Assembly (NCBI RefSeq): GCF_002105155.1
Contig: NW_019029078.1
Span: 1 to 40,226 of the forward strand
Source of the DNA: Lobosporangium transversale
Taxonomy: Eukaryota
DNA: 40,226 nt
Direction: 5' to 3'
Of the stretch, positions 3,546 through 30,850 are shown in pieces. How positions within the stretch are numbered: the stretch's first letter is position 1; the number at the start of each line of letters is the position of its first letter. The position numbers and the translations under genes were made by a program. The notes under the pieces were generated by a model. That model did no database searches. It saw nothing but the letters and a program-made list of their open reading frames with translations, and was not told the origin of the DNA.

Positions 3546-3561
3546 TGCTTGTGTCCGGTAA

Positions 3562-6063: not shown

Positions 6064-6164
6064 CCTTAAGCCTATAAAAGGCTTGTAATAGTAATTTAAT
6101 AAAGATCCTCTTCTTATATACCAAAATGATACGCAGAGTGAAAGAAAAGAAGAAACACCTCATT

Positions 6165-8360: not shown

Positions 8361-11300
8361 TCACTTTCGAGGTTTGCATGAAATGACATGTGCAAAACTA
8401 CATTCGCTGCACACACTGTATTTGAACCGGTAATCTCTGATCGATTGGCTTGTTTCAATCAACTCTGTCAATGGTACTCCTTCGCTCAGACATTCTGCCT
8501 CTAAATCTGCCTTTGTTGGTGGTTCTCGATAATGGTTCACTTGACTGGACGATGCACTCTTGGCCTTGGATGCTGTCGATGGCATTCCTACACTCTTGGT
8601 CGCCTCATGTGCAGCCAAAGGGTAGGATTGCTTGTCTATAGCTCCACGTTGCACCAAAAGCTTCCTGTTGACTTCACTCAACCCATCTACATCTTGGATA
8701 CGAGCGTTATTTGCATTAAGGACCGTTTGCTTGGTGCTCCACTTTAGGTGATATTGATATTCTTCATCCCTCTTCACAATCTGCCACATCCGAATAGAAC
8801 CATTCTCGGAGCCTGTAACCAGATAGTGGCCCTCTTTGGAGGCATTCCATACAAGCGTATTAGCATAACCGCCTTCAAATAGGATTACAACCAAACACTG
8901 GCCTGATTTTGGATCCCACACTCGTACTGTCATGTCCCAGCTGCCTGAGGCAATATACCTTCCATCGGGCGAATAAGCCACCGCAGCGACCAACCTGGTA
9001 TGTCCTTCAAACACACATAATACTGACCCTGTTTCCATATCTACCACACTAACCAGCCCTGCAAAATCTCCAACAACCATCTGCTGACGACATGGTGAAG
9101 ATGCTACACATTTTGGAATATTGCCAACCTGTGTTTCGTAACAGAACTCGCCCGTTTCTGCAGACCGTACCTGCAAGCTCTTGTGTTCACGGTGGCGCTT
9201 GAACACCATCTTTTGACTGTCATGCATGTAGACAATATCAGAAACATTACTTCCTACAACACTCACATCGTACTGGAGATCGCCTGCTTGAGCTCTCCAG
9301 ACTTTGATATTACCGCTTTCAGCATAAGAAGCAATCTGGTGGCCATTGGGCGAGAATACCACACGCTTCATCTCTACTTTGTGGCCATATAGTGTGCGGA
9401 CGAGCTCTCCTGTTTGTGTGCTCCATATAGTTATATTCCCAGATTTATGGCCACAGGCAACTGGGTGGCCAATGGGTGAGAAATCAAAGACGTAGATGTC
9501 ATCAGCACCTTCACCATGTAACTTTAAAGTGTGAACAACTTGACCTGTCCGAACATCCCAAAGGTAGACGCATGGAGCTTTGTGGCAAGTAGCAAGCAAC
9601 CGGCCATCAGGTGAGTACTTGATATCTTTTATATATTCATCGAGGCATTGTAAAATGTGGATGGACTGCCCTGTTCTTGCATCCCATATATGCATTGTTT
9701 TACCACCGCCCGTTGAAGCTATTTGCTGTCCATCCGGCGAGCTCTTGATGTTACGTATCCCCGCTGGGTGGTTATGTAAGGCATGGCTGAATTGTTGTGG
9801 TCGGGTATCCCAAAGACGTATCGTTTTGTCTCTACTGAAGGACGCAATCTGGTGCTTGTTTGGTGAATATGCCAAGCAGTTTATCCTCCCAGAGTGACCG
9901 TAGAAGGTATTCATGAGTTGTCCTGATCTCGCGTCCCAAAGCCATATTGCGCTCTTCCCGTCGCAAACGGCTATCGCTTCTCCGTTTGGTGAATACTTTA
10001 AATCAGTGATAAAATAATATATTTCTCCAAAAGTTGGAATAGCTTTGCCTGTTTGCATGCCCCACTGGTATATCTTTTCATCGGTGAACGAGGCAGCGAA
10101 CTTCCCACTAGGTGAATACCGTACGCCTTTGACATATTGATCATGTTCCAAATTAAACTTCTTTTGACCAGATCCAACATTCCACACATGCAGCCAACGA
10201 TCTTCGTAACAACGAGTTATGACTTCTTGTCCATTAGGTGAATACTCAATTTCCTCAATCCTAGAGCCATGGTCCATGAACACTATCGACTGTTGCCCTG
10301 ATGCCGCATCCCACAGCCGCAATATCTTGTCTTCACCGCCAGTTGCAACCTGCTTTCCATCAGGTGAATATGCCACACTCCTCACAGCACCAGTATGGCC
10401 TTCTAACATATATTTGAGAATGCCCGTTTGGGTGTCCCACACTCGCACTGAGCCATCATCACAGGCTGAGGCAAGATCGTTTCCATTTGGCGAGTACGCT
10501 ACACAATGAATAGACTTTGTATGGCCCACCAATCTATGAACCAATGCTCCTGAGCCTGCATCCCAAATTAAAACTGCAGTTCGACTATTGCCCCAAGAGG
10601 CAATACGCCTGCTGTCTGGTGAGTATAAAAGTCTATGGCCAGTTACATCGCCCTCCAAAACGGAAAGCTTCTCCCACCTTGATGTGTCATACACGATGAT
10701 TGAATAGTTATGTCGTTCGCCTTCGGTAACTGCAGCGAGCGCCTTGCCATCAGGTGAATATGCCCCATCAATCACCCAATTACCTGCTTCGATAAGAGGC
10801 CATTCTCCAAACTGAACACCTGCCATCTTTGCCCCGTTCAGGTTTGCTTCACGAAGCCAACATTTCCGTAAGTTGACCTTCCTCAAATCTGCTCCTTGCA
10901 GCTGAGCATACTCAAAAATACCATGGCTGACATCGGCTCCTGGAATCTGAATGCCTCGCAGGTCTGCTCCAATGAATGACTCGCCTGCTCGGACCAAGAT
11001 CGTCATCGCATTCGCTGCTGCTATCCGCCACTTGCTATCTCTCTTTGAAAGCTCTACATATCCATACAACTGCTGTTTGAACACTGACTCAAGATGGACA
11101 CGATCCTCCAGGAACTGAAGGATAGATGGCTCATCTACAAAACTCCTCCATACTAGAGGCGATGTCTCATCAGCTTGGACCACATCCACTTCTTGCTCGC
11201 TCTCCTTGATGTCTATACCTTCAAAACTGAATACTGAACTAACACTCTGTCGACGAGAGAGCGATGTGGTTGCATTTACTTCTTTATCACTTGTAGAAAT

Positions 11301-14300
11301 GCTCGTTGCTGCCTGCGGAGCAAATATCGCTCGCACCAGACTGTACTCTAGTATAGATCGATGGAGAAACCGATGCTGATTGCCTGTCCGAGTGAGTGGT
11401 GATGCCTCACGTAATAGATTTCTTCTGCTTTCTTTACTGAAATATGCTTCTTTCCATGTGCCTTTATCCTTGGATGGTGAGTACTCCACCACTGGGTTGC
11501 CATTCTGTTGCTTATAGATTGCTATAGCCAGCTCTGTGAGATACTTGATCCCATTCTGTGCAAACCCTTCATCTGTCAATACTCTGTACATCCTTCTATC
11601 TTCTGGTCTTAATGTCTCGCTTAGTCGCTTCTTGCCTCGTTCGAACCACTGCTCAACAAACTGGTCATACAATGTGACTCGTTTGATCTTGCTTTTGGTG
11701 ACCTCTTGGCCTGGATCCACCATCCGTGGGAGTACTTCTAGTGTCATCGATAGCATGAATGGGTTCTTCACGAGTTCTTGTAAGCTAGGGATCATCTTGA
11801 GTGCGCCCTTATAGTCCTTCACACCCCACAGTAAGTCCATGGAATTGACATATTGTTCGATATAGTCTTCAATCTGTTCCTCAGAGAATGGCACAATCAC
11901 TGCCTCTTGGAACAAAACACTATCTACTTGATGATTGCGATTCATAGGTTGAAATCGATCCCGATAGTCTGATCCAAGGTACTCACTGCGACAGCTGATC
12001 ACCATCTGACACTTCCACTCTCCAGGTTTATTCAGTTGGTTGGTAACATACAGGTTGATGGTTTGCATACTTTCATCATATCCATCACAGATCAACACAA
12101 ATGATCGATTCATCTTCAGTTCCTTAATCTCCGAGTCTGCAAAACCGTAATCTCGTAGCTGCTTTGCAACCATACCCTTCTCTGGATTGTCGATGGCTGG
12201 AAGATTGATAAACAGTGGGATTGGACCATGCCTCTTTCGGTATGTCCCCCAGAGTGTGCGCTCCAGAGTGCGGTTGAATGTGGATTTGCCTGCTCCTGAA
12301 TCTCCTTGTACAAGCATCACTTTCTGGTCGCTGCCTAGGAACTCTTTCACTTTGTCCATCAACAAAAACCGCTCATCATTGCTTGCTTGAGGACTTGATT
12401 TGGCATATTGTCGAACATAGAACCTTTGGTTATTCCCAACATCCGCTCGCTGTCGTTTTAGTTGGCGTAGAGTATCCTCAACACCAGGGTTCTTCTGTAC
12501 ACGTTCAAGCAATTGTGAGGATTCAGATCGAGAGAGCGTAGCAACGGGGGTGAGCTGGATCAGTGGCCCTTGGAGAGAGAGCCTGTATAGCTCTTGTTTG
12601 TTGACACCTTCGTCCATCTCAAGATCATACAAAAGAGTGTTTGCAGCTGGAATAAAAGAGAACAAAGGAAGAGAAGAAGGCATGTATGGTGTATGTGGAT
12701 TAATCACTACATATTGATTGCTGTCATTGCCATCAAAAGCATCCATAGAAGAAGAATGAGATACATACCTTGAGGACCATCTAGTGGCAACGAGGATAAT
12801 TGCTTAAGAATATTTACGACCCATTGCTTAATGTGTACATGATTGCCCCACTCCTGATCATTCTTGTAGATCTCTCCTAGGAATGTGATGGCGTCTTGTC
12901 GAGTATCCATGCTCCACTTTGTATCAGCTGCTATCTGTCCCAGCCTTTGACATAGCCCCCATTGGAATGCTGCTTCATTTCGACAGGATACTTCACACAT
13001 AAGAGTCTTGAACTTACTCAGTTTGCCTGTTTGGAGTAGTCTATCAGCTACTCGAAGTGCTGGATACCATCCTGACTTGCGACTGAAGCTCAGTCCTTCT
13101 TCCATACACTCTCTGAACAATGATCCGCTCTCATAGAGTGATGTTGCTCCTTTGTACACTTGAAGGCTCTTGTCCATGATATCTGTCACTGATGAAAGCC
13201 CTTTCTGGATGTTGCTTATCTCATCCACGAGAGCATTCAGATCAAGGTCCTTGACCGCACTCACTACTCCAAACACCCCTTGAAGTACTGATGATGTCCG
13301 TCGGAGCATGCCTTGCATTGCTGATTCATCATTTGGGATATACAATAGAGCTTGGAAAGCATAAGCTGCTTGATAGACTAGATGGGGATCTGAACTCTCT
13401 TTCAGTCCCTTAAGATATGCAGCAAGCGGCTCATAGAGTTGTTCTCGCTTGAGTCCTTTGACTTGAATGTTGATCATGGCATCGAGGATATGTGAGACTG
13501 TAGATGAGATGCGATAGAGATGATCCTTAGACTGGTTATGTGTGTTTTGCAAGCGAGAATTGAGAGTGCCAAGGATCTTGACAAGATCATCCGAGTCGAG
13601 ATATCCAAGAGGAGCATGCTGCATCAAGTGAGCCAATCCTTCCAGCAATTGAGTCTCCAGCACAATGTTATGGCTGATGCCATTGATCAAAGCCGCAAGT
13701 AGTGCTCTGAACTGGGTTTGATCAAGAACTGGAGCCAGAGTCACAATCTCAGCTACAGCTTCGGTCTTCATCCCATCCTTGATGAACAGTTCAATCATAT
13801 CCGACGCCAATTTACGCAATCGATCATGTTCATCCTGATTGCTTGATATGGCCTGTTGCCACTCTTTCTCGTGGTTATTAAGCTCATTTGTTTGGATAGG
13901 AGCAGTAGGAAACAGACTGAGACAATACGCGAGCTGGCAAATATCATCCAGATTCGCATCGACATCTGGCAAGCTGTACTTGATGACTGTTGGAGGTTCA
14001 TCATGGTTGAATATGTCCTTTGATATAGTTGCAATGGTCTGTACTGGCATGTATCGCACTGTTTCCATCATGTTGCTCAACTTGCTACTACTGGATTCGC
14101 TGACTTGTTGGTTGGCGGCGATATTCCTATTGTTGCTGTCATTCCTGTTGCTCCCTTGGATGTATCCCCATTTCTCTGCTTTCTTGTCTCGCCTCTGTGC
14201 ATCAGCTGAGTGACCCAATTGGTCAAATAAGCGAGCAAGTTGATAGTAGGCTGAGCCAATACCTTGGCGCAATACCATGTCTTCATTGGAACCTGAAGAG

Positions 14301-14509
14301 GTCAAAGAGGCTGAAGTCATTGTAGCGAAGGACTTTTTCCAAGGCTTCTGAATACGAGACAGTACAGAGTCAGCATCGAGGCATAGCTCTGTCACTAGGA
14401 TGCTATCGTCGTCTATGGTGCGAGCACCCTGCATGTACAAGTCAAAGAGTCTCAGAGCCTGTGCAGGTGAGAGTGTACTTCGTGATGGAGAATTGGTACT
14501 GCCAAACAT
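8361..14509 (-). CDS. Fungal NLR-like protein, ~2008 aa: helical/ARM-like N-terminus, NACHT, pentapeptide repeats, ~14 WD40 repeats; two exons (14509-12769, 12646-8361)
   Basis: Phase-1 intron 12647-12768 (GTATGT...TTATTCCAG) joins ORF 12707..14509 and ORF 8361..12746 in frame (GPQ-A-ANTLL). Walker A GDSGAGKS; Walker B FVLICDGYDE; ADLRG/ADVSH/AQLQG/ADLRK/ANLNG pentapeptides; repeated GH...YSP.G...WD. A small 3' intron cannot be excluded. Confidence 0.92.
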
Positions 14510-15869
14510 GGTCTATTGCTTTCGTTTTTGCTCGTAGATGGTATTCCTATCTATACCACTGAGAAAAATGGTTATCAAAAGATAGTTTGTTAGTAGCCAG
14601 TGTGAAAAAATATTTTCTTTCGCCATATTTGCCTGTCTCTTACATGCATGTATGCTTTAAAGATTCGAGAATCGAACTAACAAAAAAGAAATGCAATTGG
14701 AATTGTCTGATGTGCTGAAGGATGAAGGTTGAAGGATAAAAAGATGAAAGATGAAAGACAGATGGCGAAGGATGATGAAAGATTAAACGCATGCATCTCC
14801 TTGCCTTTGTGCAACTAAAATTGTTGCACATTTACTTCATTTCCTCAATGCGCGCTGTATAAGGGTCAATTGTTTTTGTGATTTCAGCTCGATTCCTTCC
14901 TCCTCTTTTTAATTCAGGGTTAAAGAAGAATGTCCTTTTGGTACATGAATGAAGTGAATGAAGAATAATTCGTGAGATCATGCTTGTGTTTCCGGCCTGC
15001 GCAGGAATGTTTACATGCATGGAAACATTGAATGCCTTGCACATGTGACAAGAGGGATCATCTCTTGGCACGGAGCAATGGTTGGTATACCTCACTACTT
15101 TATCGGTGCAACTCGAACTTCAGCTACTTATTGACGCCACCCTTGAAAACTGAATGGCCATTCTCATCCATCAACACCCAGCATTTGGAGAAAGTATAAT
15201 TTAGGTGGTATTGCTGTTATCATTTGCATGAACATGCCTTTTATATGACCCACCTATACAGGGCAGCTCTCTTTTTTCTTTCTTCTTTTTTCTTTTTTAT
15301 ATTTTTTTTTTTTTTGGCACCATACCGGTGTAAAGACGTATGAATGTACGAAAAGCAAAACATTTGATACACGCGATACACCTTCACACCTCAATCTTAG
15401 CAAAGCGCTTGAAAATGTCAGCACCACGGACTCTTCGTAGCAAAAAAAAAAAAAAATTAGAAAGGTCGACAGTATGCTATGCTATTCGCTAGATCACCAG
15501 GGTATCAAATAGGCCAGTATTTATCATTACCGCTTGCCCTCAATGAAGCATTGCAGCAGCAGCTCCGGAACAAAGGAATGGTTCGTGGTACAGTCTCTTC
15601 GCAATACAGAGACATTTTATTTGCTCTTCTCCTCCATAGGGCCATTCAAAAGCAACGAGGCTCAATAAATAATCAACAACTACAAGATTATGTACTTGTT
15701 TTGATAAGTGCGCCTTATTGAATAAAGATTCAGCAAACAGATGTCTTGGCCATCATTTCAAGGTGTCTTCCTTGATTGGAGACAGCCAGGTTTGTAATGG
15801 TTAACACGATATGTACTCCATTGAAAATAAGAAAAGAGAGTTCAGTTTGCAAAGAAGCAGAGAAGTTAT

Positions 15870-16092: not shown

Positions 16093-16331
16093 TGGCACTT
16101 CTTTAGACCTATTCGCTTATTTTATCTCTCGGACTGTAAACGAGGCAAATCTACCCTTTACCTTTCATCAACTCATGGGCAGATCGGATCTAGTTCTCTG
16201 TGCTTTCTATTAGCAGAAATTAGCTGTCTATCGCATGCCAATTAAGATAAAAAATCAGTAAAATTAATCAACCAGCAAAAAAAAAAAATTAGGCTCTATC
16301 ATCACCATCATCACCATGAACTATGTCCGCC

Positions 16332-16453
16332 ATTGTCTACGGTACCATGTCCGTATGTGTGTGTCACCTTTCTTCATTGAAAATCCGACGAGAAATAAAG
16401 AAAAATAAACTAAATAAAAAGATCCCTCTGCCCTGCAACTCTGATCTACATCT
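16332..16453 (+). repeat. DIRS left inverted terminal repeat
   Basis: Reverse complement of 20482-20600: a perfect 94-bp core plus an imperfect outer part. Confidence 0.93.
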
Positions 16454-16508
16454 TTCTTCTCGTCGCTCCTGGAACTCATCCGTTGCAGACTATTATCTAT
16501 TCGTTCCA

Positions 16509-17438
16509 ATGAGCGACAATTCTACCGACAACACTCATAATGCACTCCTTCATGAAATCAACACTCTTCGTCAGCAGGTGGCTGCCCTTACGCAGGCCAA
16601 CCCTTCCTCCTCTTCCCCTTCCCCCATCACCATTGATCGCCCACAGGCCAAGATACTTGTCCTCTCTGATACCCTCAAAGCGGCTGTACCTTCCCTTGAC
16701 GGCTCTCATTTCTTCCGTCCCCCGGACAACTCTGGCGACGATAACATCCTCACCGAGTACGTCCTCTATCCCAAGAACCCAGATCAGCAGTACAAAGCGC
16801 CCTCTCTTGAGTTGCCTTGGCCTCAGGAGACCACTTCTTTTCAACGAGTGGACAAGTGGTTATCCCAACTACAGGAACGTCAGGCCCACGCTACGCGACC
16901 CTTGGACGAATTCCTGGCAGAATACTTTCACAAAGTGCACGATCCTGCATTACGGCAGATCGTCGCAGATTTTGGGCATGCCATGCGATCTCATCTGGCC
17001 GTTACAGCACGCCAAATCACCGATCTGCGCATGGATAATTTTGTGTACGCAAAGGGTCTCAAGCCAGCCCCTGATCATGAAAAGACTGCAACTATCACTA
17101 AAGATGATATTGCAGCCCGAATTAAAGCTGCTGAGGAGTACCAGGAGGCCAGCAAGCCTCGCAAGACAGCTTTGCAAAACAGAGGGTCCGGTCGCAATTC
17201 CGGTTCTCGCAGCAGGGGTATTTACTTTAACATGTACCCCCACCAGCAGCAACAGTTCCAGCAATTTCCATCACAATCGCAACCTTATTCACCAGCGAAT
17301 CATCATCAAGCACAACAAGCCACACCTCCTCAGCTCACTTACGGGTATGGAGAGCCCATGCATAACAACCAGCAGGGACAGTATTTTTACAGAGGCAGCC
17401 GTGGACGGGGACGCGGCAGCGCCAACAAGAGCCAGTAG
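16509..17438 (+). CDS. DIRS ORF1, Gag-like (309 aa)
   Basis: First ATG after the ITR, in frame with ORF 16323..17438. Contains DKWLSQLQERQAHATRPLD...ITDLRMDN and an RG-rich C-terminus; its position is typical of DIRS gag. Confidence 0.8.
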   Translation: MSDNSTDNTHNALLHEINTLRQQVAALTQANPSSSSPSPITIDRPQAKILVLSDTLKAAVPSLDGSHFFRPPDNSGDDNILTEYVLYPKNPDQQYKAPSLELPWPQETTSFQRVDKWLSQLQERQAHATRPLDEFLAEYFHKVHDPALRQIVADFGHAMRSHLAVTARQITDLRMDNFVYAKGLKPAPDHEKTATITKDDIAARIKAAEEYQEASKPRKTALQNRGSGRNSGSRSRGIYFNMYPHQQQQFQQFPSQSQPYSPANHHQAQQATPPQLTYGYGEPMHNNQQGQYFYRGSRGRGRGSANKSQ

Positions 17439-20265
17439 GAGGCCGTCTGCACCTCTACTCGAGGGCTTGGAGGCTCCTCACGGACGACAGGTGGGTCCGC
17501 TCCGTGATTGGAAACGGTTTTCAGATTCCCTTCCACAGACAACCTCCAATAACACACACATCAAGAGCCCTTTCCCCGCATCTATCCAAGGAGGAGACAC
17601 TGGCGATAGAGAACGAAGTGATCGCACTTCTGGCCAAAAAAGCCATAGAGCACGCTTCGGGACCTGGTTTCCAGAGTCGTTTGTTTACTATCCCCAAGAA
17701 GACAGGGGACCTCCGGCCTGTCCTCAACCTACGTCCTCTCAATCAATTTATCATCACAGACTCGTTCAAGATGGAGACGATTCAGGTAGTATGCAATACC
17801 CTTCAGAAGAACGATTATTTGACGAGCATCGATCTCAAAGATGCTTTCCTTCATGTGCTGATTCATCCACATTTTCGTCCTTACCTTCAGTTTCAGTGGA
17901 AGGGTCAGCTGTATCAGTTTCGCACTCTACCTTTCGGGATGTCACTGTCGCCGTTAGTCTTCACGAAGGTCCTACGCCCGGTGTTGAGATGGGCGAGGCG
18001 TCGAGGAATACGGCTGACAGCTTACATCGACGATCTGTTGATCATGGCCAACTCCAAAGCCCAAGCAGAAGAGCACACGAATCTTGTCCTGGACAAACTC
18101 AAGTCTCTTGGATTCCTCATCAACAAGGAGAAATCCTCTCTGATGCCAACGAAATGTCTAGATCATCTGGGTTTCACCATCAACACCACCGACATGACCC
18201 TCTCGGTACCGAAGTCCAAGGTCAGGGACATACGGCGAGAAGCAGCGAAGATGCTCAGCAAGGGATGGACGACGGTTCGCAACTTGGCTACGTTCATAGG
18301 GAAAGCCATGGCGACGACAGCAGCAGTATTTCCAGCTCGTCTAATGACGCGGCATCTTCTGGCATTGAAGAACAGAGCGCTCAGCCATCAGGGGTCATCT
18401 TGGGAAGCGACGATCTCACTGGACGACAGAGCTCGAGCCGATCTGGATTGGTGGACACACCAACTCAAGGAGTGGAACGGGACGTCATGGATTCAGTCGC
18501 CAACTCAGATGGACGTGTACACAGACGCCTCCGACCAAGGCTGGGGGATCGTCATAGGGCAGCGCACTTGGACAGGGCTATGGCCACCAAACATACGCCA
18601 CCAACACATCAATTTAAAAGAGTTACTAACCGTGTACTACGCAGTCACTCTACCGCAAACACAAGGGAGGATGCTCAACCTAGTAATCGACAACACAACC
18701 ACCATCGCTTACATCAACCGGTTCGGCGGAACTCGTTCACAACCTCTGATGGACCTGGCGGACAAAATATGGAAGCATTGTCTAGCAACAGGCACAAGAC
18801 TCAGGACCACATATGTACCTTCAGTATTCAATCCAGCAGATGCACCATCACGCCGGATGCAAGCGCAGCTCGAATGGAGGCTGGACCCGTCATTTTTCCG
18901 TCGTCTAGACCAGCAGTGGGGGCCTCATCGGATAGACCTCTTTGCATCGCCCAGCAACAACCAGCTTCCTCAGTTCATGACATGGAAACCTCATCCTTTG
19001 GCAGTGGACTTCGATGCGCTGAGACACAAGTGGAGCCACTTGGGCAACCTTTACATCTGTCCTCCATGGAACTTACTTCCAAGGATCCTGCAGAAGCTAG
19101 ACCAGGAAGGCCTGGAAGCGACCATAATTACTCCATTTTGGCCATCGGCGATTTGGTTCCCGAAGATACAGGCAATGGCGACCCAACCCCCTTTACCGAT
19201 TCCACGAACATGTGTTCTCCCTCCACCAGGAAACGACGCGCACATCCTGCTCAAGAATCCACACTGGGGCCTTACCGCGTGGAGAGTAAGAGGACGAGGA
19301 TGCTCATAGATGGCCTCTCGCCAGCGGTGACTGAGTTTATCTGTGCTCACAAAGGATCCAAGAGCACCAAGCGAGAGTACGAAAAGCATCAAGCTGAATT
19401 CGTCACTTGGCTGAAAGAGGGCTCGTTCGAACAAGGGATTAACCCCGCGATCCCAGTAGTGAACTGGCTACACTACGTGCGGGTCGCTCGCAATTTGAAG
19501 TGGTCCACGCTGATGACCATGAAGTCGGCTGTCCTCGCCCTATTTCGTGACCCAGAGAGAGTACGATCAGATGAATACTACCGCCAGTTCCTCAAGGCTG
19601 GAAAGCAAGAAGGTGTCGTTGAGTCCAGGTCTGGTCACTTTGACATCACACCTGTTTTGGACCATTTTCGGCAGTCATCAGCAAATATGGAGTTGCCTTT
19701 TGAGGAGCTTACATGGAAGCTGTGTTGGCTCTTAGGCGTCTGTGGCTTCATGAGACCAGACGACATCAGATGTGTAGATGTCAGTCTCTCCAAGCTTGTG
19801 TTAGGGAAGCTTCAGCTTGTTGTTGTTTTCCCAAAAGAGAAGAGTGATGGACAACGTATCATTAAGCATGTGACCATTGGTTCTCACTTTGACAAGAAGC
19901 TATGCCCTGTCGACGCATACACCGCTTACCTGGACAGGCTGTCTTGTCCTTCCACTACCTCTCCTCATCCGAAGGACCCAACAAGAAGCATTGTACCTTT
20001 GATTAGATTTGTGAAAGACCACACCCAGCCGGCGCGTGCGACTACTATTGGCTCCCACATGAGTAGGATTTCTTCGCTGATGGATTTAGGAGACAAGAAA
20101 GCTCCTAAGCTCCGAGCCTTAGGTTCTACGCTCGCGGCTATAGCAGGCGTACCAGTGGCTGATATCATGGTGCAGGGGAATTGGTCGTCCCCGAAAGTCT
20201 TCGAGAAGCACTACCGTTTGTCGAGTGCCACCTCCAACAACATGTCCATGAGCACTCTAGGCTAG
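16540..20265 (+). CDS. DIRS tyrosine recombinase ORF; recognisable YR domain at ~19300-20265, with the frame open from 16540
   Basis: CGFMRPDD (catalytic R), PKEK, LCPV, KLRALGST, GNWSS and FEKHYR (catalytic Y). The translated extent of the upstream overlapping part is unknown. Confidence 0.88.
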   Translation: MHSFMKSTLFVSRWLPLRRPTLPPLPLPPSPLIAHRPRYLSSLIPSKRLYLPLTALISSVPRTTLATITSSPSTSSIPRTQISSTKRPLLSCLGLRRPLLFNEWTSGYPNYRNVRPTLRDPWTNSWQNTFTKCTILHYGRSSQILGMPCDLIWPLQHAKSPICAWIILCTQRVSSQPLIMKRLQLSLKMILQPELKLLRSTRRPASLARQLCKTEGPVAIPVLAAGVFTLTCTPTSSNSSSNFHHNRNLIHQRIIIKHNKPHLLSSLTGMESPCITTSRDSIFTEAAVDGDAAAPTRASRRPSAPLLEGLEAPHGRQVGPLRDWKRFSDSLPQTTSNNTHIKSPFPASIQGGDTGDRERSDRTSGQKSHRARFGTWFPESFVYYPQEDRGPPACPQPTSSQSIYHHRLVQDGDDSGSMQYPSEERLFDEHRSQRCFPSCADSSTFSSLPSVSVEGSAVSVSHSTFRDVTVAVSLHEGPTPGVEMGEASRNTADSLHRRSVDHGQLQSPSRRAHESCPGQTQVSWIPHQQGEILSDANEMSRSSGFHHQHHRHDPLGTEVQGQGHTARSSEDAQQGMDDGSQLGYVHRESHGDDSSSISSSSNDAASSGIEEQSAQPSGVILGSDDLTGRQSSSRSGLVDTPTQGVERDVMDSVANSDGRVHRRLRPRLGDRHRAAHLDRAMATKHTPPTHQFKRVTNRVLRSHSTANTREDAQPSNRQHNHHRLHQPVRRNSFTTSDGPGGQNMEALSSNRHKTQDHICTFSIQSSRCTITPDASAARMEAGPVIFPSSRPAVGASSDRPLCIAQQQPASSVHDMETSSFGSGLRCAETQVEPLGQPLHLSSMELTSKDPAEARPGRPGSDHNYSILAIGDLVPEDTGNGDPTPFTDSTNMCSPSTRKRRAHPAQESTLGPYRVESKRTRMLIDGLSPAVTEFICAHKGSKSTKREYEKHQAEFVTWLKEGSFEQGINPAIPVVNWLHYVRVARNLKWSTLMTMKSAVLALFRDPERVRSDEYYRQFLKAGKQEGVVESRSGHFDITPVLDHFRQSSANMELPFEELTWKLCWLLGVCGFMRPDDIRCVDVSLSKLVLGKLQLVVVFPKEKSDGQRIIKHVTIGSHFDKKLCPVDAYTAYLDRLSCPSTTSPHPKDPTRSIVPLIRFVKDHTQPARATTIGSHMSRISSLMDLGDKKAPKLRALGSTLAAIAGVPVADIMVQGNWSSPKVFEKHYRLSSATSNNMSMSTLG
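17366..19309 (+). CDS. DIRS Pol: reverse transcriptase, RNase H and adenine-methyltransferase-like domain (no ATG before the conserved N-terminus)
   Basis: The frame opens after TAA 17363-17365 and reads PVGGRL...W...TDDRWV, IDLKDAF, LPFG, YIDD (RT); DASDQGWG, HINLKEL, DNTT, NPADAPSR (RNase H); IDLFAS...DAL...YICPPW (MT-like). Confidence 0.93.
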   Translation, partial: QPAGTVFLQRQPWTGTRQRQQEPVGGRLHLYSRAWRLLTDDRWVRSVIGNGFQIPFHRQPPITHTSRALSPHLSKEETLAIENEVIALLAKKAIEHASGPGFQSRLFTIPKKTGDLRPVLNLRPLNQFIITDSFKMETIQVVCNTLQKNDYLTSIDLKDAFLHVLIHPHFRPYLQFQWKGQLYQFRTLPFGMSLSPLVFTKVLRPVLRWARRRGIRLTAYIDDLLIMANSKAQAEEHTNLVLDKLKSLGFLINKEKSSLMPTKCLDHLGFTINTTDMTLSVPKSKVRDIRREAAKMLSKGWTTVRNLATFIGKAMATTAAVFPARLMTRHLLALKNRALSHQGSSWEATISLDDRARADLDWWTHQLKEWNGTSWIQSPTQMDVYTDASDQGWGIVIGQRTWTGLWPPNIRHQHINLKELLTVYYAVTLPQTQGRMLNLVIDNTTTIAYINRFGGTRSQPLMDLADKIWKHCLATGTRLRTTYVPSVFNPADAPSRRMQAQLEWRLDPSFFRRLDQQWGPHRIDLFASPSNNQLPQFMTWKPHPLAVDFDALRHKWSHLGNLYICPPWNLLPRILQKLDQEGLEATIITPFWPSAIWFPKIQAMATQPPLPIPRTCVLPPPGNDAHILLKNPHWGLTAWRVRGRGCS

Positions 20266-20355
20266 ATTTTCTTTAGTTAGTTGTTCATTTCGTTCAGTTT
20301 TCTTTTAGTTTTAGTTTTGTTTTAGTTTAGTTCTCTTTGGCGATCCCTCTGGAGC

Positions 20356-20447
20356 CACATACGGACATGGTACCGTAGACAATGGTCTACTGAATGGTCT
20401 ACGAAGGACGACCTATTCACATTGTCATAGGTACCATGGACGTATGT
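20356..20447 (+). repeat. DIRS internal complementary region (ICR)
   Basis: 20356-20385 is the reverse complement of 16330-16359; 20381-20447 is the reverse complement of 20573-20639 (67 bp). The two halves overlap at AATGG. Confidence 0.95.
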
Positions 20448-20481
20448 CCCACCCACACCACCCCTTTTTGGCTCGAGAAGT

Positions 20482-20639
20482 AGATGTAGATCAGAGTTGC
20501 AGGGCAGAGGGATCTTTTTATTTAGTTTATTTTTCTTTATTTCTCGTCGGATTTTCAATGAAGAAAGGTGACACATACGTCCATGGTACCTATGACAATG
20601 TGAATAGGTCGTCCTTCGTAGACCATTCAGTAGACCATT
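20482..20639 (+). repeat. DIRS right inverted terminal repeat plus 3' extension
   Basis: Complementary to the left ITR and to the second half of the ICR; ends GACCATT. Confidence 0.93.
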
Positions 20640-22137
20640 TACTTACCTCCATCCTTTTAGCACATCTAGCAACATTTACTATTTTTCATTCCTTCTTTCC
20701 CTGCCAGAAGAAAAACAAAACACCTTTCCGACCCCTTTTCCCTTTTTCTAGAGGCATGTTACCGAATCTCTATACTGCTTTAGAATGGTTGTCATTTGAG
20801 ACTTTAAAAGATCGATTGATTGCATGCTCAAGCCTTTGTCTCTGACAGCAATAGTATCAAGGTAAACTGCTAGGTGGCAATCGTGCGCGTTGTTACCTTA
20901 CCAATCGCACCAGCCCTCTAGAATCAACCCCTCCAAAAGGAGAGCACAATGTGAAGCTGTATTCTCCAAGGCCTGTGGAAATTGGTGGACTTTTGAAAGG
21001 ATGGAATCAACAATTGCCTTAGGAAATCTGCAGGCACGAAATACCTCTTATATGTCCATATCCTTTTTTCAAGATGAGTTTTGTAAATACAAGTTTTGGT
21101 TCCGTAATGAGCCTATATCAATTTCAAAAAAGAACAAGTTGGACTTTGTGGTATGATATACATTTTTTTAAAATAAAACTACAACATGTGTCCACACCCA
21201 AACAAATATCATCCTATCATTGCTGTGCATTGACCACATGACGCTCTCAAGAATCTAAACTCAGTAATACAGTGCAACCTTATCAGGATTAGGAAATACA
21301 GCCAAGATGGAGTGGTTGACTGCATGATGTATGTCGTTTGGACCTCTTACTCTAAATGGACCAACGCAATTGCTGTAATGAGTATAAATTGTTTGAGAAA
21401 AATGTGCCACCAATAAGGGGGGGTTTTTTTTTCCCTTACTTTATTTTACTTACCAATGCTTTTTCATCTTTTGCATCCCGTAGAGATGGTTCTATACTTC
21501 TTTCTTGGAAGCAATGTACATATTTAAACTGCAAGTCTCCACAATATGGCCCATCAAATTATTGTATTCACCTTCGTTAAGGGATGCGTGAAAAGTGCCG
21601 CTCTATGCTGGCTTGGTAATCAAAGCACTGTGAGCAATTCGTTCCATGTAGAGGATCCATGACCTACTCTAAAAGATGCTGGCTCTTAGTCCCAATGCGG
21701 TGTCTATCAAATATTTTTTTCTCTTTTAATGTTGTAGCTTTTGGCCTTCTTAAAATATTCGATCAAAAGTCATAAGAAGGAGGACCCTATATATTGCGGG
21801 CGCATTTAGTCTTGTAGATAATATATTTTTATTTTTATTTTTATTTTCACTTTTTTTATTTTGTGATCCAGTGGATGTGATCATATTACAAAGCTCTTCA
21901 TAGCATTACAATGACTAAAGTCGGGTATTTTTCTTTATAGTTCTCACAAAATACAACATCGTCTCTCTTAACGAGACAAAAAGTAGTTCATAATATTTTA
22001 AGCTTTATTTCTGGTCTTATTTTCTATAGAATCAAAGGAGCTCCATCATACCGATCACTTGTGGATTTAAGTTATCCCTGTACATAGCCAGTATCATCTC
22101 TGAGTTTATTTCAAGGTTGGCTTTCTTGACCTTAATC

Positions 22138-22525
22138 TTAAGGGCAGCTGTTTGTCAATCTGCAACCAATGCTGGCTTCCTCAACCGAGTCGGCTTCCTT
22201 GACATTAGCAGGGCAGCTGTTTGTCAGTCTGCAACCAATGCTGGCTTCCTCAACCGAGTCGGCTTCCTTGACATTAGCAGGGCAGCTGTTTGTCAGTCTG
22301 CAACCAATGCTGGCTTCCTCAACCGAGTCACCGATTGGGATCTTGATTGGGCCAGCTATAAGATTAAATGGAAGGTGATAATGAGGTAAATGTTTAGTAT
22401 ATTTTAATAATATATAACTCGTAAACATGCATATGCATATGAACAGGTGTAAAGATCTTACCTTCGGCGGACATGACCAAGGCGGCAGCAACTACGGAAA
22501 GGGCGGCGGCGATTGAGAACTTCAT
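22138..22525 (-). CDS. Secreted repeat-peptide precursor, 93 aa: MKFSIAAALSVVAAALVMSAEA-GPIKIPIG-DSVEEASIGCRLTNSCP-(ANVKEADSVEEASIGCRLTNSCP)x2; exons 22525-22462 and 22355-22138
   Basis: ATG at 22525. Phase-1 intron 22356-22461 (GTAAGA...CTTATAG) restores the frame: 64+218=282 nt including TAA. MKF plus a hydrophobic stretch plus an A-E-A signal peptidase motif. TATAAAA lies ~95 nt upstream. Confidence 0.9.
22141..22329. repeat. 69-bp coding tandem repeat, 2.7 copies
   Basis: Units start at 22141, 22210 and 22279 and are identical except one synonymous change (Leu TTG/CTG at 22158). Confidence 0.97.
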
Positions 22526-22616
22526 GATGTGGAATGGATGGTGGATAGTAAAGTAGCTTTTTTAGTGTTGTAAGGTACTTGAGGATAAGGAAAAGGAAAG
22601 GTGTAGGAGTGTCTGC

Positions 22617-22625
22617 TTTTTTATA
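22617..22625 (-). promoter_or_regulatory. Putative TATA box of the peptide-precursor gene
   Basis: TATAAAAAA on the minus strand, 92-100 nt upstream of the ATG. Confidence 0.55.
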
Positions 22626-23236
22626 AAAAAAAAAAAAAAAAAAGCAAAAAAAAAAATTTACCTGTATATGATAGCGGAATACCTAACATATCTTGAAACA
22701 TCAAGCAACCTATAGCTATAAGTCAAAGATGCTTTTCTGTTTGACTATTCTTATCCTATCTCAGTTACATCAGGGGCTGAATCACTCGTCTAATGAAGTG
22801 AGACTTGAGATAGCCATCAGAACGTCTGATCCACACATCTAAGACAATTTTCGAAATTTCCATATGACATGCCTGTGAGACAGCCAATCACACAAGTCTT
22901 GTCGTCATAGTTGACAACATACAGCTTCATGTAGCCGAAAAGGCATAATGCAGATGTAGGATAGTTGGGGTAGTTGTGCAGAAGGCTGTGTCCGTGTATT
23001 GCTGTTGCGATACTCAGTCAGGGTCTAGTTGCTCATACTTTGGAGGCACAAAATCAATGTGATGATATCTTTTCCTTGGGACTCTTTATTTTCTTACCCC
23101 TCTATAGCCAAATGATCTGTCTTCGCCTGTTCATACTATACAGCAGAACGGCAATAGCGTATACTGTCCTTATCCAGTAATTGCTAGATTAGGTTAGGTT
23201 GTTTAGGTTGTTTCCCATGATGAACCAGTTTAATCA

Positions 23237-24060: not shown

Positions 24061-24318
24061 AAAACGTGATTTATTGTTCCTTAATTTACATAGTTTAATT
24101 TGACCATATGACACGGCCCTTATTTTGAAACTCTAATCGAGCCTGAAAAAAAAGTCGCGTCTACGATGCACTGCAGATCTAAAATGTAAACCTGTTCACT
24201 TTGTTTTACTGTCCTACTTTCTCAGCACACCTAAATCTGCCTCCATTTTCCCTGGACCTTTTTTTTCATTGCTTTCGTCTATTTTATCAGTTTTTTTTAA
24301 AAAAGAAAAAAAAAAATC

Positions 24319-25926
24319 ATGCCTGCCACACGTTCCACACGTTCGTCATCTGTTGCACCTCCTACAACTCAGTTGCCTACCAAGCGCTCTCGCTCTATCT
24401 ATGGCGGCTCGAACCACTCGAAAGCTGTTTCTTCTCTGGTCCGCTGGATTTGTGGACTCGCTTTGCAAGGGATCTGTCAGAAGACTTTCTTAATACATGT
24501 AGAGGGCTCTTGGAAGAGACAACTACTATCGCTGAAGATAGCGCAGAGGAACAAGCTAAGGGCTCGGCACTTTATGATCTGAATGAAGTACTGAAGGAGC
24601 TTGGATCCTGCCTGGCTAACTTTCCAGAGATGACCCAAGAGCTTGAAAATGCCCTGCAGAGGGAAGATCAGGTTGGTGACACGCAGTAGCAATGGGAATT
24701 TGAACAAGAGGCGCTCAACAACGTGGTGCACTTGAACTTGGACCAGAGAATCGCCTTAAAACACATCATCAAAGCAGCCAAGGGTGAGGTTCATAAGAGG
24801 CTTTTTTTCATTGATGGCCCAGGAGGAACAGGCAAATCATTGTTATACAGCACACTCATTGGCTGTCTCACTGGTCGACATAAACTAAGTGTGATTGCTG
24901 TTGCACCATCAGGGATTGCCTTTCTCATTCTTCATAATGACCATACAGCCCACTCTATGTTCAAGATACCGATCCCTTTTGACTGTCGCTCCACCTTCAA
25001 TCTTAGTATGCGGCGAGATGAGAATATGCAATGCTGGCGTCTTCTGGGACGAGACTCCTTTACAGTACAGGCATTGCTTTGAGGCTGTCGACAGGCTACT
25101 TCGGGATATTATGGGACAGGATACTCCATTCAGTGGTAAGGTGTTTGTATTTGGAGGCGACTTCAGAAAGGTACTTCTGGTTGTCATCCGTGGGACCCAG
25201 GCTCAGATTGAGGATGCTTCACTAAAAAGATCTTATATAGGCCTTCAGTGGCGGCATTCAGACTGAGCAAGAATATGCGGGTTAACAGCCATCCTGAGAA
25301 TCAAACAGGTTGCGATTATCAAAGAGCTATATCAAGGAGAGCGTATATTCATTCCTCACATACCGCTTACAGCGATTGATGACCATTCTTCCCCAATCAT
25401 GCTCTGCAGACGCTAGTTTCCAGTCAAGCCAGCCTTCGCCATGGCTTTCAACAAGTCTCAAGGACAGACACTTAAACACGGTGTTTATCTTCCTCAAGAT
25501 GTCTTCAGTCATGGCCATCCCTATGTTGCTTTATCATGATGTACTGGCCCAAACAATCTTAAGGTACTGATAGGGGACGGGAAGATAGAAGGCAAGCCTG
25601 GGATATACACCCGGAACATAGTCTTCAAAGGTGCTTTGTAGACACCATATCTTTTGATCTTCAGGTATTCTGTCGCTTATTCATCTCCAGTTTGTTCACG
25701 CCAGCCTCCAACTCACCTCTGCCGTTACTCCATCTGACGTTATTCTGCCAGATGCTCCCCTCTTGGTTGTAACATTTTTTTTTTGTATTTTATTTTGTAT
25801 CTTATTTTGTATCTTATTTTGAACTACAATAAAGACAACCTTTTATGTCGTTCTCACGAGGCAAAGCATTAAATTTTTTAATAAGGCACAAGGGCAGGCT
25901 GTGGCGAAGCCACGGTCTCTAGCTCG
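24319..25926 (+). mobile_element. Decayed Helitron with a PIF1-helicase pseudogene and 3' hairpin terminus
   Basis: LSEDF...LYDLNEVL; FFIDGPGGTGKS (Walker A); AVAPSGIA...TAHSMFKIP; PFSGKVFVFGGDFR; VFSHG.PYVALS; TRNIVFK. Hairpin at 25899-25915 and terminus ...GCTCG|T at 25926. The 5' boundary was not determined. Confidence 0.9.
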
Positions 25927-25959
25927 TTTTAATATAAGAAAAGAAGATATTAAAGTACT

Positions 25960-26537
25960 AGTCTTTTGACGATGAAGGTCCTCAACTTGTTTCTTCAGTT
26001 CCTGGATCATGTTTTCTTGATCTGCCACCTGCTTTTGAAGTTGTAAAACTTGAATGGAGGTTTCTTGTACTGTATTGGTGTTGGTGCTACTTTCTTCAAC
26101 TTTTCTTTTTTTTTGACTTATGCTTGAGAGGAGCAGGGATGCTGAATGGAAGAGGAAATTTGATGGGTCCTGACGGAACTTTACTATTAATGGTTGGCAT
26201 CATTTGTTTCAGATAATCACAGTCTTTAAAGTGCCTCGATACGGATGCTCGGTCTCGAAAGAAATTAGAACACACAAATATAGTTGTAATCGGCCTGTGA
26301 ATCTCGATGTACCTCCAATAAACGATCGATACCGATATCTGGTTTGCGATAATTAAAGGTGGTTGAACAGTCTTTATGATAACGACCATAGTGGTGTTTC
26401 GATGATATATCAAGTTTCTTGTATGCCACATTCGAATCGTCTTTTAGCTCTCGCGACCTGATCTTAGAGAGAGGTAATAATTTTTCGCAATTGTTGTAGT
26501 GGCAGCCTTCAGGAACCGCCTCTTCAGAATGATTCAT
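25960..26537 (-). pseudogene. Frameshifted zinc-finger/coiled-coil gene remnant
   Basis: ATG 26537 MNHSEEAVPEGCHYNNC...HYGRYH...YIC, frameshift, CSNFFRDRASVSRHFKDC..., frameshift in poly-A, LQKQVADQENMIQELKKQVEDL. Confidence 0.55.
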
Positions 26538-27375
26538 GTTTTTGATTAGAGTTGATGTTAAGTGATTGTTTAATGGTTCAATGAAAGAGATGAAAGTTGA
26601 TGCAAAAGTAAAGTCTGTCTTTTGAAATGATCTGTTTAATGTTGGGCTGTTTTTTTGACCGCAACAATTCATGCATCCTTTTTTGCATCTCAATCTCTCA
26701 TACAATTGCGGTGTACATGACTCATTTGCATAAATTTTTGTGCCGCAAACCAACATGTTTTTTGCGTCGTAAACAATCCATATTTGAGACGCCATTACAT
26801 TTCGATCACGTCATCCAGGACACATAAATAGATGCAGTTTAAAAACAAGCCCTCTCTGATTCATTCAATCCCATCATCTTCTTTAATCCTCATCATGTTT
26901 GTTCTAAACGATAAGTATTACTTTATTGATTCAATTATAATCTTGTTCCATCGTTGTGCTGGAAGAATGAAAAGCTTGTTCAATAGGGACCGGTGCTTTT
27001 GTCATTTCATTCGAATTGATCAAAAGCTGTATGTTGCGATCCGATGAGTGAGGCAACAAAGAACATTCTTCTAAAAGCACGATATCAGTGAAAAGCTAAT
27101 TCCACGAGGGATTGGTGTTCTCTGTGCATCCTTTTTGCTCCTGCGAAGGCAATGTAAAGAGAACTAAGGTGGCTTTGTGAAAGCATTGCGCCGAAAAACA
27201 CTGAGAGATGGACACAACGGTTTTGTCTTAATTCTATTGTTATGTTATATACATACACTAACCTAAAATATAAATCGTCGATGATGAATCAAACTTTAAG
27301 AGCACAATTCAATGAATCCCTCTTGATTATATTGAGTGGTCTTGTTAGTCTGAGACGAATTTATTTAAATAAATA

Positions 27376-27495
27376 CGAGCCGGAGACCGTGGCTTCGCCA
27401 CGGTCGGCTCTTGCCTCGTTAGAAAATTTAATGCTTAGCCTCGTAAGAACAAAAAGAAACATTGTCTACAGCAGCAAAAGGTTTATATTTTGACA
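27376..27495 (-). mobile_element. Helitron 3' terminus on the minus strand, interrupted at 27495 by another Helitron
   Basis: Hairpin 27387-27403 with terminus CTCG|T at 27376/27375. Nearly identical to the reverse complement of ~30798-30854 and similar to ~25830-25926. Confidence 0.8.
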
Positions 27496-30400
27496 TCCTA
27501 TATATTAAAACGAAAGGGTGTCTGCACGTGCCGAAATGTGACTGCATGAAGGCAAAGTGACTGCTACAGAGAGTGGCTTTGGCCCCAATATGGCTCCCTG
27601 GGTGGAAATAAAGAGGTATCTTATTTGTAAATGAAAAGAGAAAATAAAGGGTAGTGCTCTCTTCATTGCAAATGTCGACACCAAAAAATTTTTGCTCAAA
27701 AAAATTTGACCTCTACTCTGAGTACGGTATACCATACACACTATTAAAGGTCATGTCAACAATATACGATGCGAGAGTATATACATATTATGGGCCTGAA
27801 CTCTTAGCGTACTTTACCACTCTACACCTTCTTCTATCACATTCCTTGCTTTCACACACTTTACCTTCACATATCTTTCACTCTTCATTTGAAAAGAAAA
27901 AAAAAAGATATGTCCCATACGTTCATCTGTCAGACCTTCGCCACCTGCCAAATGGGTCATCAAAGCATGGCAAGTCCGGTGAGACGGAGGTTTGAAGAGA
28001 GCTTACAAGGAGGAGAACAGGTGAAGGAATATGACTGGGCTTATAGGCCAATCGGCTCTGCCCTGCTTGCATTGCTTGAATAGGAGATGGAAAAAGGGGA
28101 AGAAAGGAAAAATGAGGTAGAAAGGTTTAAGACTGCAGCTGAACTTCGATGTAGTGCTTGCTTGACGTAGGTTGCTCTTGCAGCAAGGATGTGTTTGTCC
28201 TATTCTAAGGATAGCCAAGCTCAAGTCCTTGGTCTAACGGCACTCACTCCACCGAGTTGATCTCCAGCAGCCGTCCCGCATACCTCCACATGAACAACTG
28301 TTCGCTCTCTTTCAATCCCACAATCTCCCTCACAAAAAGAGGACAAGGGACCTACGTACCATACTGATGCATTGTCTATAATAGAGGTAGCTAAATAGCC
28401 AAGTAATGATCATAAAAGAGTACCTCCTACACTACAAAAGTAATGCTAGAAAGCCTATCTAAAACTATGGGAATGATAATTTACATTACGTAGTTCTTCT
28501 GCGAGGAACAATCTAGTGTAACAGTTAAATTCTAGCATTTTCGCTTGCATACCCGCCAATGCTAAAATGCTAACTTTATTTTTGTTATTGCATTAGGTGA
28601 GGAGAATATCGGTTTATTTCCGAAGGGACTACATATAATTCACGTTTATCCACTGTTCTCTACTTTCGCCACTATTACATTTATTTTTATTTTATTTTAT
28701 TTTTGGATTTTATTATCTATATTAGTTAAAGATCCCTCTCAATGCTACGCCTTATGGCATGTAGCCTGTGCAGCAGCGACAGACATGGCAAGAGACTATG
28801 CCCTCAGAATGTAAGGAATGTAGTAAGGCCTTCTTATCTTTTTGTTTTTATGTTTTTGGAATATATAAACATTAATAGTATTTTCCCAACTGATAAAGAC
28901 AGAACGATTTTTCCCAATCGCCTCGCTCCCCCTTCCATTCCACGTCTGTATGTGGGTGCAGTCGTCCAGGCCATGTGCGCAGCTCATACCCAAATAATTA
29001 AGAGTGTGATTTCGGTATTTAACAATCGTAGAAAACTTTTTTTTTTATTTTATTTTATTTTATTTTTGACATGGTAGTGGTTGGTGCATGCTGAGCTTAA
29101 GCTTATATACCTTCTATAACTTGAATAACGCTGCCAGCAACGATGTGCAGAATATTGGGTCAATTCGGAGGCAAAGGTTCCTATTTTATATTCATTAGAT
29201 TTTGTCATTCTTTTTTTAACCCTCCATCATTATTACTTACCTGCAGGGCGAGCACCGTCAACCAGCTCCTACAGTGTATAAATGCAGTATCTGCAGTTGC
29301 CTAGGAGTAGATATAGACCATGCTCAAGTAATAAAGGGTGAGTTTGATTTTCAACGGTTGGATTTTTTCGTCTCAGCAATAGACTATTAATCCTTAGCTT
29401 TTTCCTTTTTACTGCTTGCTTTAATAGCGTTGTTAGTAACTCAGTGCAAAATGGCGCTAGGCCTGTGTGCACACGAAGTATTGTTTTGGAGATGGTGGAG
29501 ATGAAAATGAAAGACCCGTGCAAAGACAAGGGTGTGCTACTTTTTGTTCGGTTTTTTATTGGCTTATTATACTGTATTATACATTGCGTGTACTTAATCT
29601 TACACAATTACCATTTACCATTTACCATCGACCTTCAGAATACACGAGCGTAAAGGTGATCCTTCTGTTGAGGATGCTCCTTCTACCGAAGATAATTCCT
29701 CTGTCGAAGACAACTTTCTACCACCCGCTAGAAAAAGGTTTCACCAAGATTTCGTTTCGGGTTCCAATATTATGCAATATAGGTACCGGTCAGTTGCCAT
29801 TATTGCGGTGCCTTCATGTTTATTGAAGAATGTGTGTGCAACGCAGTAGTAAAAGCCGGCCAGAATTTCCTTTATGCTGTGGGAGAGGTCAAGTGGATAT
29901 TCCTCCACTTAGCCTTGGTTTAACTTCTTGATGGGCAGAGCCGCAAGGTAAGTTATTCCGTTAACACATATAAGCATATAACTGCGCTCTTTCGTTCACG
30001 TTCGTGGAAGTGAACCTTGATAAAGACCTTGCGAACAACCTACATGAAGTGTACACGTTTCGTACCATTGGAAGGGTTAGTACTCTGATTGATCCTATGA
30101 CGCCAACTGAAGGCGCTGCCTCTCTGTTCCTGCAGGCTCATGCTCACATTCATGACCCTGCTCAGCAAGCAAGACTCCGTAATAACCATTTCGGGGATTC
30201 CTTGATGAAGGCCTGTTGCAGTAACCACAGCAGCTCCTTGAACTACACTACCCGATAGCCCATACGCTCAAAGATGTCAGAGAATGTGCGCACGAGGATA
30301 TCATGCGGCTGAAGGTCGTCATCCGTGCTGGGCCTCAGCATGAGGGGAGAGGGCAAAGGCGAATGCAGTACAGGCCATCTCATCAACTGGAATCGTGCTA

Positions 30401-30850
30401 TTGATGGCTGGCGCCAGTAGTAAGGTTTCTCAGCAAGGCATCATAATTGAAAGCAGAGCCAGTGGTTTGAAAAAAACCAGTGAGGTTCATCAAGCTGAAG
30501 GCGGATGCATATATCGGTACAATGGGTGCAATTGAGCTAAATCTCAGACCTGAGCTATAGTTGCGGAACATTGTCTCCAAGGAATGGTTTGTAAATAAGC
30601 ATCCTCTCATTTACTACCGTATCTTCTAGATATTCTTCCTTATTTTGTATTTTATTTTTTGTTTATTTTACTGCTGTATACAATTTACCGGATTTTGCTT
30701 TATTGTATTTCTATATAGTTTGTAGTTTTTAAAATGGTAAAAAAGATCCCGGTCAATAAAAATGTTATAGATGGTAACGCTTTATTTTGTCTTCATAAAA
30801 TTTCTAACGAGGCAAGAGCCGGCCGTGGCGAAGCCACGGTCTCCGGCTCG
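27496..30850 (+). mobile_element. Non-autonomous Helitron with both termini (A|TC...hairpin-CTCG|T), 3355 bp
   Basis: 5' end A|TCCTATATATTAAAA at 27495/27496. Degenerate Rep N-terminus CHYCGAFMFIEE...FPLCCGRGQVDIPPL and YNCALSFT...YTFRTIGRVSTLIDPMTP...LQAHAHIHD at ~29795-30160. Hairpin 30823-30839 followed by T at 30851. Confidence 0.82.

Follow-up and report, generated by a model that had tools for sequence, protein, structure and literature searches.

The closest described systems are the Kex2-processed repeat proteins (KEPs) of fungi, which combine a signal peptide with at least three tandem repeats of 8–100 residues, the repeats being separated by KR, KK, RK, or RR (PMC7329392; Umemura 2020). 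For Mucoromycota, the available sections of that survey of 1461 genomes list 357 KEPs, spread over 38 of 39 strains and never with a DUF3328 neighbor, which corrects the statement of an earlier note on this DNA that the architecture of a signal peptide followed by tandem cores is characterized mainly in Dikarya. In the same sections, Lobosporangium transversale has 0 KEPs and Mortierella verticillata has 8, and M. elongata occupies 13 rows (PMC7329392). The zero in L. transversale could mean that processing has genuinely moved away from dibasic sites, or simply that small genes, such as the one described here, are poorly annotated.

The Cys-type alpha-pheromones of Sordariomycetes, Leotiomycetes, and some Dothideomycetes are a second group for comparison, with identical two-Cys cores of about 11 residues and acidic spacers containing E-A dipeptides. 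Pheromones of this type and of similar length are described in PMC6339444, and the pro-pieces of alpha-type precursors are described as acidic spacers with E/D-A dipeptides in PMC9769878. According to the accessible part of PMC6339444, Mucoromycotina use apocarotenoid pheromones, little is known about the pheromones used in other early lineages, and no peptide pheromone is known in the phylum of L. transversale. Dikaritins need Tyr for an ether cross-link together with DUF3328 (PMC7329392, PMC6339444), and none is reported outside Dikarya in the accessible part of PMC7329392. The precursors of dikaritins (ustiloxin, phomopsin, and asperipin-2a) carry a leader and tandem cores behind an acidic stretch, together with a core Tyr, a dibasic site, and a DUF3328/tyrosinase neighbor. 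Cycloamanide (MSDIN) precursors, which are cut by prolyl oligopeptidase B, are single-core and cytosolic, with an MSDIN leader and a core between two Pro residues. The precursors of Impatiens Ib-AMP and of cnidarian and ctenophore neuropeptides have a leader, short repeated cores, acidic spacers, and non-dibasic release.

The window analyzed here, a stretch of 40,226 nt, comes from L. transversale, an early-diverging soil fungus of the Mortierellaceae. It holds a small two-exon peptide gene on the minus strand (22525–22138), made of a 64-nt exon, a 106-nt intron, and a 218-nt exon. Exon 1 (22462–22525) begins with ATG and carries 21 codons of a signal-peptide-like leader, as judged by hydropathy and by look-alike leaders in sequencing run X1. 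The intron (22356–22461), whose splicing is predicted from its sequence, is a phase-1 GT-AG intron that runs from GTAAGA through a pyrimidine tract to TATAG, and exon 2 (22138–22355) includes the TAA stop (22138–22140) directly after the last Pro. The exon join proposed in the earlier note was reproduced and reads 93 codons, whereas the unspliced frame ends after 43. Eleven AGs lie within 200 nt of the donor; three of them give the repeat frame, and a pyrimidine tract is present at 22356 only. The acceptors at 22314 and 22263 are in frame but lack such a tract and were rejected as main splice forms. The GC content was 0.59 and 0.53 in the exons, compared with 0.26 in the intron and 0.38 and 0.33 in the flanks. 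A TATAAA sequence (22620–22625, minus strand) lies about 100 nt upstream of the ATG, with a T tract before it and a C/T-rich leader after it, and may serve as a promoter box; AATAAA motifs on the same strand at 22110 and 22009 (22004–22110) are candidate polyadenylation signals. One of the three sense frames is open over the repeat. On the opposite strand two frames are open as well, without a start or leader, and a plus-strand frame of 119 codons (22030–22389), which has no leader, was rejected as a gene and taken as a shadow of the repeat. The codon use of the peptide gene (GC3 0.60, AAG in 4 of 4 and TGC in 6 of 6 cases) is given with counts that the repeat inflates. No second copy of the gene was present within the window. 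The acceptor context, the repeat frames, the TATAAA sequence, the GC contrast, and the stop exactly at the unit end place the gene beyond chance, and it is very probably real.

The precursor opens with a hydrophobic leader ending in A-E-A and a Pro/Ile pro-piece, followed by a 17-residue cassette that occurs three times, the copies being joined by a further hexapeptide. Each cassette is an acidic hexapeptide followed by the core SIGCRLTNSCP, and the period is 23 residues; at the DNA level, the unit is 69 nt, with 2.7 copies that are 99% matched. The short pro-region (residues 23–36, 22312–22353) is rich in Pro and Ile with one Lys and then runs into the acidic hexapeptide. All three cores have the form C-x5-C-P, as had been claimed, and occupy residues 37–47 (22279–22311), 60–70 (22210–22242), and 83–93 (22141–22173) on the minus strand. 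Between them lie two identical spacers (22243–22278 and 22174–22209) of 12 residues, with 4 acidic residues, one Lys, and Ala at 3 places. The sole difference among the copies is a synonymous CTG/TTG change of Leu at 22158 in core 3, again in agreement with the earlier note. Since 22% of single-base changes in one unit would be synonymous, this one change is weak evidence of selection; DNA copies so nearly identical suggest a recent duplication or conversion event and need not reflect selection. The leader has Lys at position 2, an Ala/Val/Leu core with 9-residue hydropathy means of up to 2.8, and an A-x-A end that is completed in exon 2, so that the previously claimed signal peptide is predicted here too. 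A crude signal filter passes 28 of the 1599 ATGs in the window, and the leader therefore convinces only in combination with the other features.

Compared with KEPs (Le Marquer 2019, PMC6339444; Umemura 2020; Vogt 2022, PMC9769878), as the accessible parts of these papers describe them, the precursor shares a putative leader for secretion, three tandem repeats, and a short length. Three 17-residue cassettes recur at a 23-residue period, and the predicted leader agrees with a signal peptide in hydropathy and in its A-x-A end, but the defining dibasic site is absent: the 93 residues contain 0 pairs of KR, RR, KK, or RK. By definition the precursor falls outside the KEPs, although it probably works in a similar way, and KEP screens would miss the gene, as had been foreseen, because the KEP rule requires such a pair (PMC7329392). 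The earlier description of a multi-core secreted-type gene in an early-diverging fungus holds for this member of Mortierellaceae, and what appears new, judging from the sequence, is a predicted secretory precursor with several cores that lacks the dibasic sites by which the known fungal class is defined. With Cys-type alpha-pheromones, the precursor shares the identical two-Cys cores of about 11 residues and the acidic spacers with E-A dipeptides; the ring is C-x5-C here and C-x6-C in two examples given in PMC6339444. Those pheromones also have Kex2 sites, whereas the present chain has no Kex2 site, a broken X-A/X-P run, and no Trp.

By analogy, the best reading is likely that the precursor works like a KEP or alpha-factor precursor and is cut in another way. 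Processing to free ring peptides, taking all processed readings together, seems probable. The fuller proposal, that a predicted secreted precursor is cut into three disulfide-closed peptides that end in Pro and act as a diffusible signal, is put forward tentatively, as somewhat short of an even chance. After transcription and splicing of the 106-nt intron, as the sequence signals suggest, the product would enter the ER and lose its leader after residue 22. A disulfide would form between Cys4 and Cys10 within each core, as expected for a secretory protein with a pair of Cys in every unit. Kex2/Kex1 release as defined is excluded because the chain has no dibasic pair, and the simplest Kex2-free route would be a peptidase of the S28 An-PEP/EndoPro type, which Mortierellaceae presumably possess, cutting after Pro and Ala. 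Alternatively, a cut at the single Lys could be followed by exopeptidase trimming. The stop directly after the third core fixes its C-terminus at Pro; matching ends in the other two copies would mean that the Pro-Ala bond is cut, or the tail trimmed, in these. Since the core contains no Ala and only the terminal Pro, a Pro/Ala cut would free the same 11-mer from all copies, and the repeats would triple the yield per transcript. The calculated monoisotopic mass of the 11-mer in its plain disulfide form is 1147.51 Da; the oxidized 12-mer, 17-mer, and 23-mer come to 1218.55, 1777.76, and 2390.08 Da, and forms extended at the C-terminus to 1431.66 or 1559.76 Da.

In an in silico digest, 6 of the 210 one- or two-residue specificities gave three identical two-Cys fragments; all six included Pro, and Pro plus Ala gave the 11-mer. 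Cutting at Lys gave three different products of 25, 23, and 19 residues, cutting at Glu/Asp gave 17, 17, and 12 residues, and cuts at Arg or Asn opened the ring. The digest makes the Pro/Ala route plausible, not demonstrated, and it is partly built in, because the stop forces Pro and a 10-residue core often lacks Ala by chance. The Aspergillus secreted protease An-PEP cuts after Pro (about 50%) and Ala (about 30%), and its specificity for Pro/Ala is only about 80% at pH 1.5 and looser above (PMC7710147); a protease of this type belongs to family S28 (PMC10731622). For the Lys route with trimming, the dipeptide register is in phase with the core start from 4 points, namely residue 23 and each of the 3 Lys residues. 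The dipeptides after Lys are EA, DS, VE, and EA, 2 of 4 of which fit the X-A/X-P rule of Ste13; V-E and I-K break it. Because the three copies have 17 residues in common, the point at which the 11-residue core begins is an assumption, and the mature peptide could be an 11-, 12-, or 17-mer.

The lack of a canonical processing site would also agree with intact secretion, in which the product is a 71-residue small acidic Cys-rich repeat protein (of the wall or spore surface, metal binding, or a cross-linked coat) and recent duplication within the gene produced the repeats as structural modules. The DNA copies are 99% identical, and unequal crossing-over inside a coding repeat can also leave the stop at a unit end. 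A single-sequence model gave, at low confidence, one helix per repeat through spacer and core, as would suit an intact protein, but with a pLDDT of 61.5, a pTM of 0.44, and a range of 37 to 62 over the five models; it appears to speak neither for nor against an intact folded protein. A search of Pfam with the exon-2 product gave two matches below the cut-off, which were rejected, and 0 passing stretches, and no solved relative was found for it, the best PDB sequence having an E of 0.84. The acidic spacers alternate with neutral two-Cys cores, which is the usual look of precursors. Intact secretion is rather unlikely.

The processed chain could be modified further by enzymes, as a precursor of a ribosomally made peptide with a dikaritin-like cross-link or a head-to-tail ring closed at Pro. 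The signal and tandem cores would agree with this, as would the acidic pair directly before the core and the core end, since Pro-cyclized fungal peptides have Pro at the core end. As in cycloamanide precursors, the core ends in Pro and a post-Pro cut may free it, but the present precursor is multi-core and secretory, its leader is hydrophobic, and Ala precedes the core. The suggested likeness of the spacer to the dikaritin precursor UstA is a tentative lead. With dikaritins, the precursor shares the leader and the tandem cores behind an acidic stretch, and it lacks their Tyr, dibasic site, and enzyme neighbor; the mature chain has no Tyr, Trp, His, or Phe. The 18 neighboring frames that were scanned, among the 61 window frames of 100 or more residues, contained no tailoring enzyme, DUF3328, tyrosinase, peptidase, or transporter, in agreement with the earlier note; the neighbors are transposons and an NLR-like gene. 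The pattern HxxHC gave 7 matches in six window frames, none in a recognized gene. In the available sections of PMC7329392, 0 of the 357 Mucoromycota KEPs has a DUF3328 neighbor. Enzyme modification is very unlikely, and the earlier proposal of a ribosomally made peptide in the dikaritin sense is not upheld, given no Tyr, no DUF3328 in the 18 frames, and no dikaritin reported outside Dikarya in that source.

By analogy with Cys-type alpha-pheromones, the ring peptide would bind a receptor on the fungus itself or on a neighbor. A neutral polar seven-residue ring in identical copies seems more in keeping with a receptor ligand than with a lytic antimicrobial, and the net charge of +1, with no aromatic or amphipathic face, would argue against a membrane-lytic antimicrobial. 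The same processing could instead yield a peptide for defence or directed at a host, such as a trypsin-type inhibitor loop acting through Cys-Arg, an antibacterial peptide, or a plant-active peptide; the defence peptides of animals and plants include examples with C-x5-C rings and with Cys-Arg reactive loops. The gene also lies among mobile elements and near an NLR-like gene. Effectors and toxins are among the linear KEP peptides (PMC7329392), and Coprinopsis kep knockouts show no axenic phenotype in the accessible part of PMC9769878, which points to biotic roles. A defence or host-directed role is nevertheless quite unlikely given the charge of +1 without an aromatic residue, the three identical cores in place of a diversified set, and the lack of a sequence match to known inhibitors. 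Ib-AMP and the cnidarian and ctenophore precursors share the leader, repeated short cores, acidic spacers, and non-dibasic release, but Ib-AMP cores are cationic with four Cys, and no sequence likeness to the non-fungal multi-peptide precursors was found. For the preferred reading as a fungal signal, a mating role would be without precedent in the host lineage, because Mucoromycotina use apocarotenoid pheromones.

Homologues of the 72-residue exon-2 product were not found among near-length proteins (0 of 1048 candidates at E ≤ 0.1), longer proteins (0 of 1486 at E ≤ 0.01), or viral candidates (0 of 7), and an atlas search gave no usable match. Six matches among 1.84 billion representatives were rejected as long unrelated repeat proteins (LRR and NosD-like) matched through periodicity. 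One candidate from metagenomes (of 313) and one from prokaryote genomes (of 172) were rejected too, each being a CheB methylesterase that shares a 9-residue word. A leader query (the 43-residue exon-1 read-through) gave 0 of 309 candidates at E ≤ 10, which is a weak test. The absence of core homologues is weak evidence as far as unannotated genes are concerned, because the collections hold annotated or prokaryote-style gene calls in which small spliced fungal genes are poorly represented. The peptide product itself is absent from the protein collection, where the near-length search would have listed it, and that collection contains 2 of the 10 window proteins looked up; the gene is apparently unannotated. 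The core and spacer motifs had no match in the literature searched or in the supplements of PMC7329392 and PMC6339444, as far as these were accessible, and no relevant paper linking Mortierella with KEPs or RiPPs was found.

Five sequencing runs share words with 21900–22700; none is recorded as RNA, and run X1 is only guessed to be RNA. Contigs on the peptide gene came from X1 (three), and X2, X3, and X5 gave none. The first X1 contig is a 99-nt exact match to 22227–22325, partly covering core 2, at a depth of 3278; it spans one period plus 30 nt, which would be the shape of a tandem repeat in a 31-mer graph. The other two (window 22470–22545) match the leader and about 20 nt upstream, ungapped, at 64 of 76 and 44 of 50 letters, with depths of 39 and 174; contig depth is not a measure of expression. 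These two contigs represent two other genes that share the leader and about 20 nt upstream and then diverge. By eye, and on the assumption that the loose ends as printed abut the joint, both look-alikes stay in frame as leaders; one passes without an intron into K-A-A-P-I, at the place of E-A-G-P-I in the spliced gene. At the level of sequence, the look-alikes support the proposed joining of the exons and a leader common to a family of small secreted proteins. The X1 contigs reach neither the intron, the flanks, nor the gene's own leader or splice junction, and they are uninformative either way on these parts. The new peptide family suggested in the earlier note is not borne out, with no core homologue in any search and two leader look-alikes in X1 only.

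A leader common to other genes, together with the lack of a core homologue in the collections searched, the absence from public protein sets, and the transposon-rich surroundings, would also suit a young or decaying gene, in which a leader borrowed from a small secreted protein family was joined to a coding minisatellite under little selection. This is very unlikely, as the promoter, splice, and stop signals are intact, the codon use is as given above with its repeat-inflated counts, and the exact unit is present at high depth in another run (X1).

The peptide gene lies between a DIRS-type retroelement and PIF1 Helitron remnants (24690–25266), with the ARM_5 and WD40 NLR-like gene further off. 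The retroelement (16320–20640) is apparently intact, with a gag-like frame, a reverse transcriptase with a Dam-like methylase tail, and an RNase H-like domain. Its inverted ends lie at 16357–16453 and 20482–20578, it has an internal complementary region, and a long overlapping frame ends, by eye and with no Pfam match, in a tyrosine-recombinase-like part. A second, truncated tyrosine-recombinase-like frame (36808–37434, minus strand) resembles the end of that frame by eye. A Helitron-like element is present in two diverged copies (about 2300–7400 and 24090–30650), 67–88% identical in blocks, with broken PIF1 helicase frames and other inserts in each. The NLR-like gene (8361–14512, minus strand), split by at least one intron near 12700, encodes ARM_5 and many WD40 repeats, with a NACHT-like P-loop region and a pentapeptide stretch seen by eye; its ARM-like domain had no match at 0.9 in the atlas search, and no literature on Mortierellaceae NACHT WD40 proteins was found. 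At the contig end, an inverted duplication (1–2100 and 3562–5660; 2100 nt, 99.95%, 1461-nt spacer) copies part of a C2H2 zinc-finger frame (4363–6063); it is a fold-back artefact of the assembly or else a palindrome of very recent origin. A frame at 38214–38897 (plus strand) encodes a 228-residue hypothetical protein with no Pfam match, near-identical copies of which occur on several L. transversale contigs. Its product matches named L. transversale proteins at 227 of 228 residues (99.6%) and is probably the cargo of a mobile element. A chromodomain-like stretch was seen by eye at the window end (about 40000–40226, minus strand).

Fungal peptide catalogues rest on dibasic Kex2 sites, and a repeat precursor without them, from a lineage with no known peptide signals, is a pointer to a blind spot; of the 69,264 secreted repeat proteins that the survey of 1461 genomes collected, the KEP filters set aside about 61,000 (PMC7329392). 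Whether this precursor is the first of a class, in which fungal multi-core precursors are freed independently of Kex2 by Pro/Ala cutting to give a disulfide-ring hormone or pheromone in Mortierellomycota, is doubtful on present evidence. If it is, Pro/Ala-cut precursors would be invisible to every KEP screen, which could explain why L. transversale is the only one of the 39 Mucoromycota strains without a KEP, and the common leader family in X1 would be a way to find other members.
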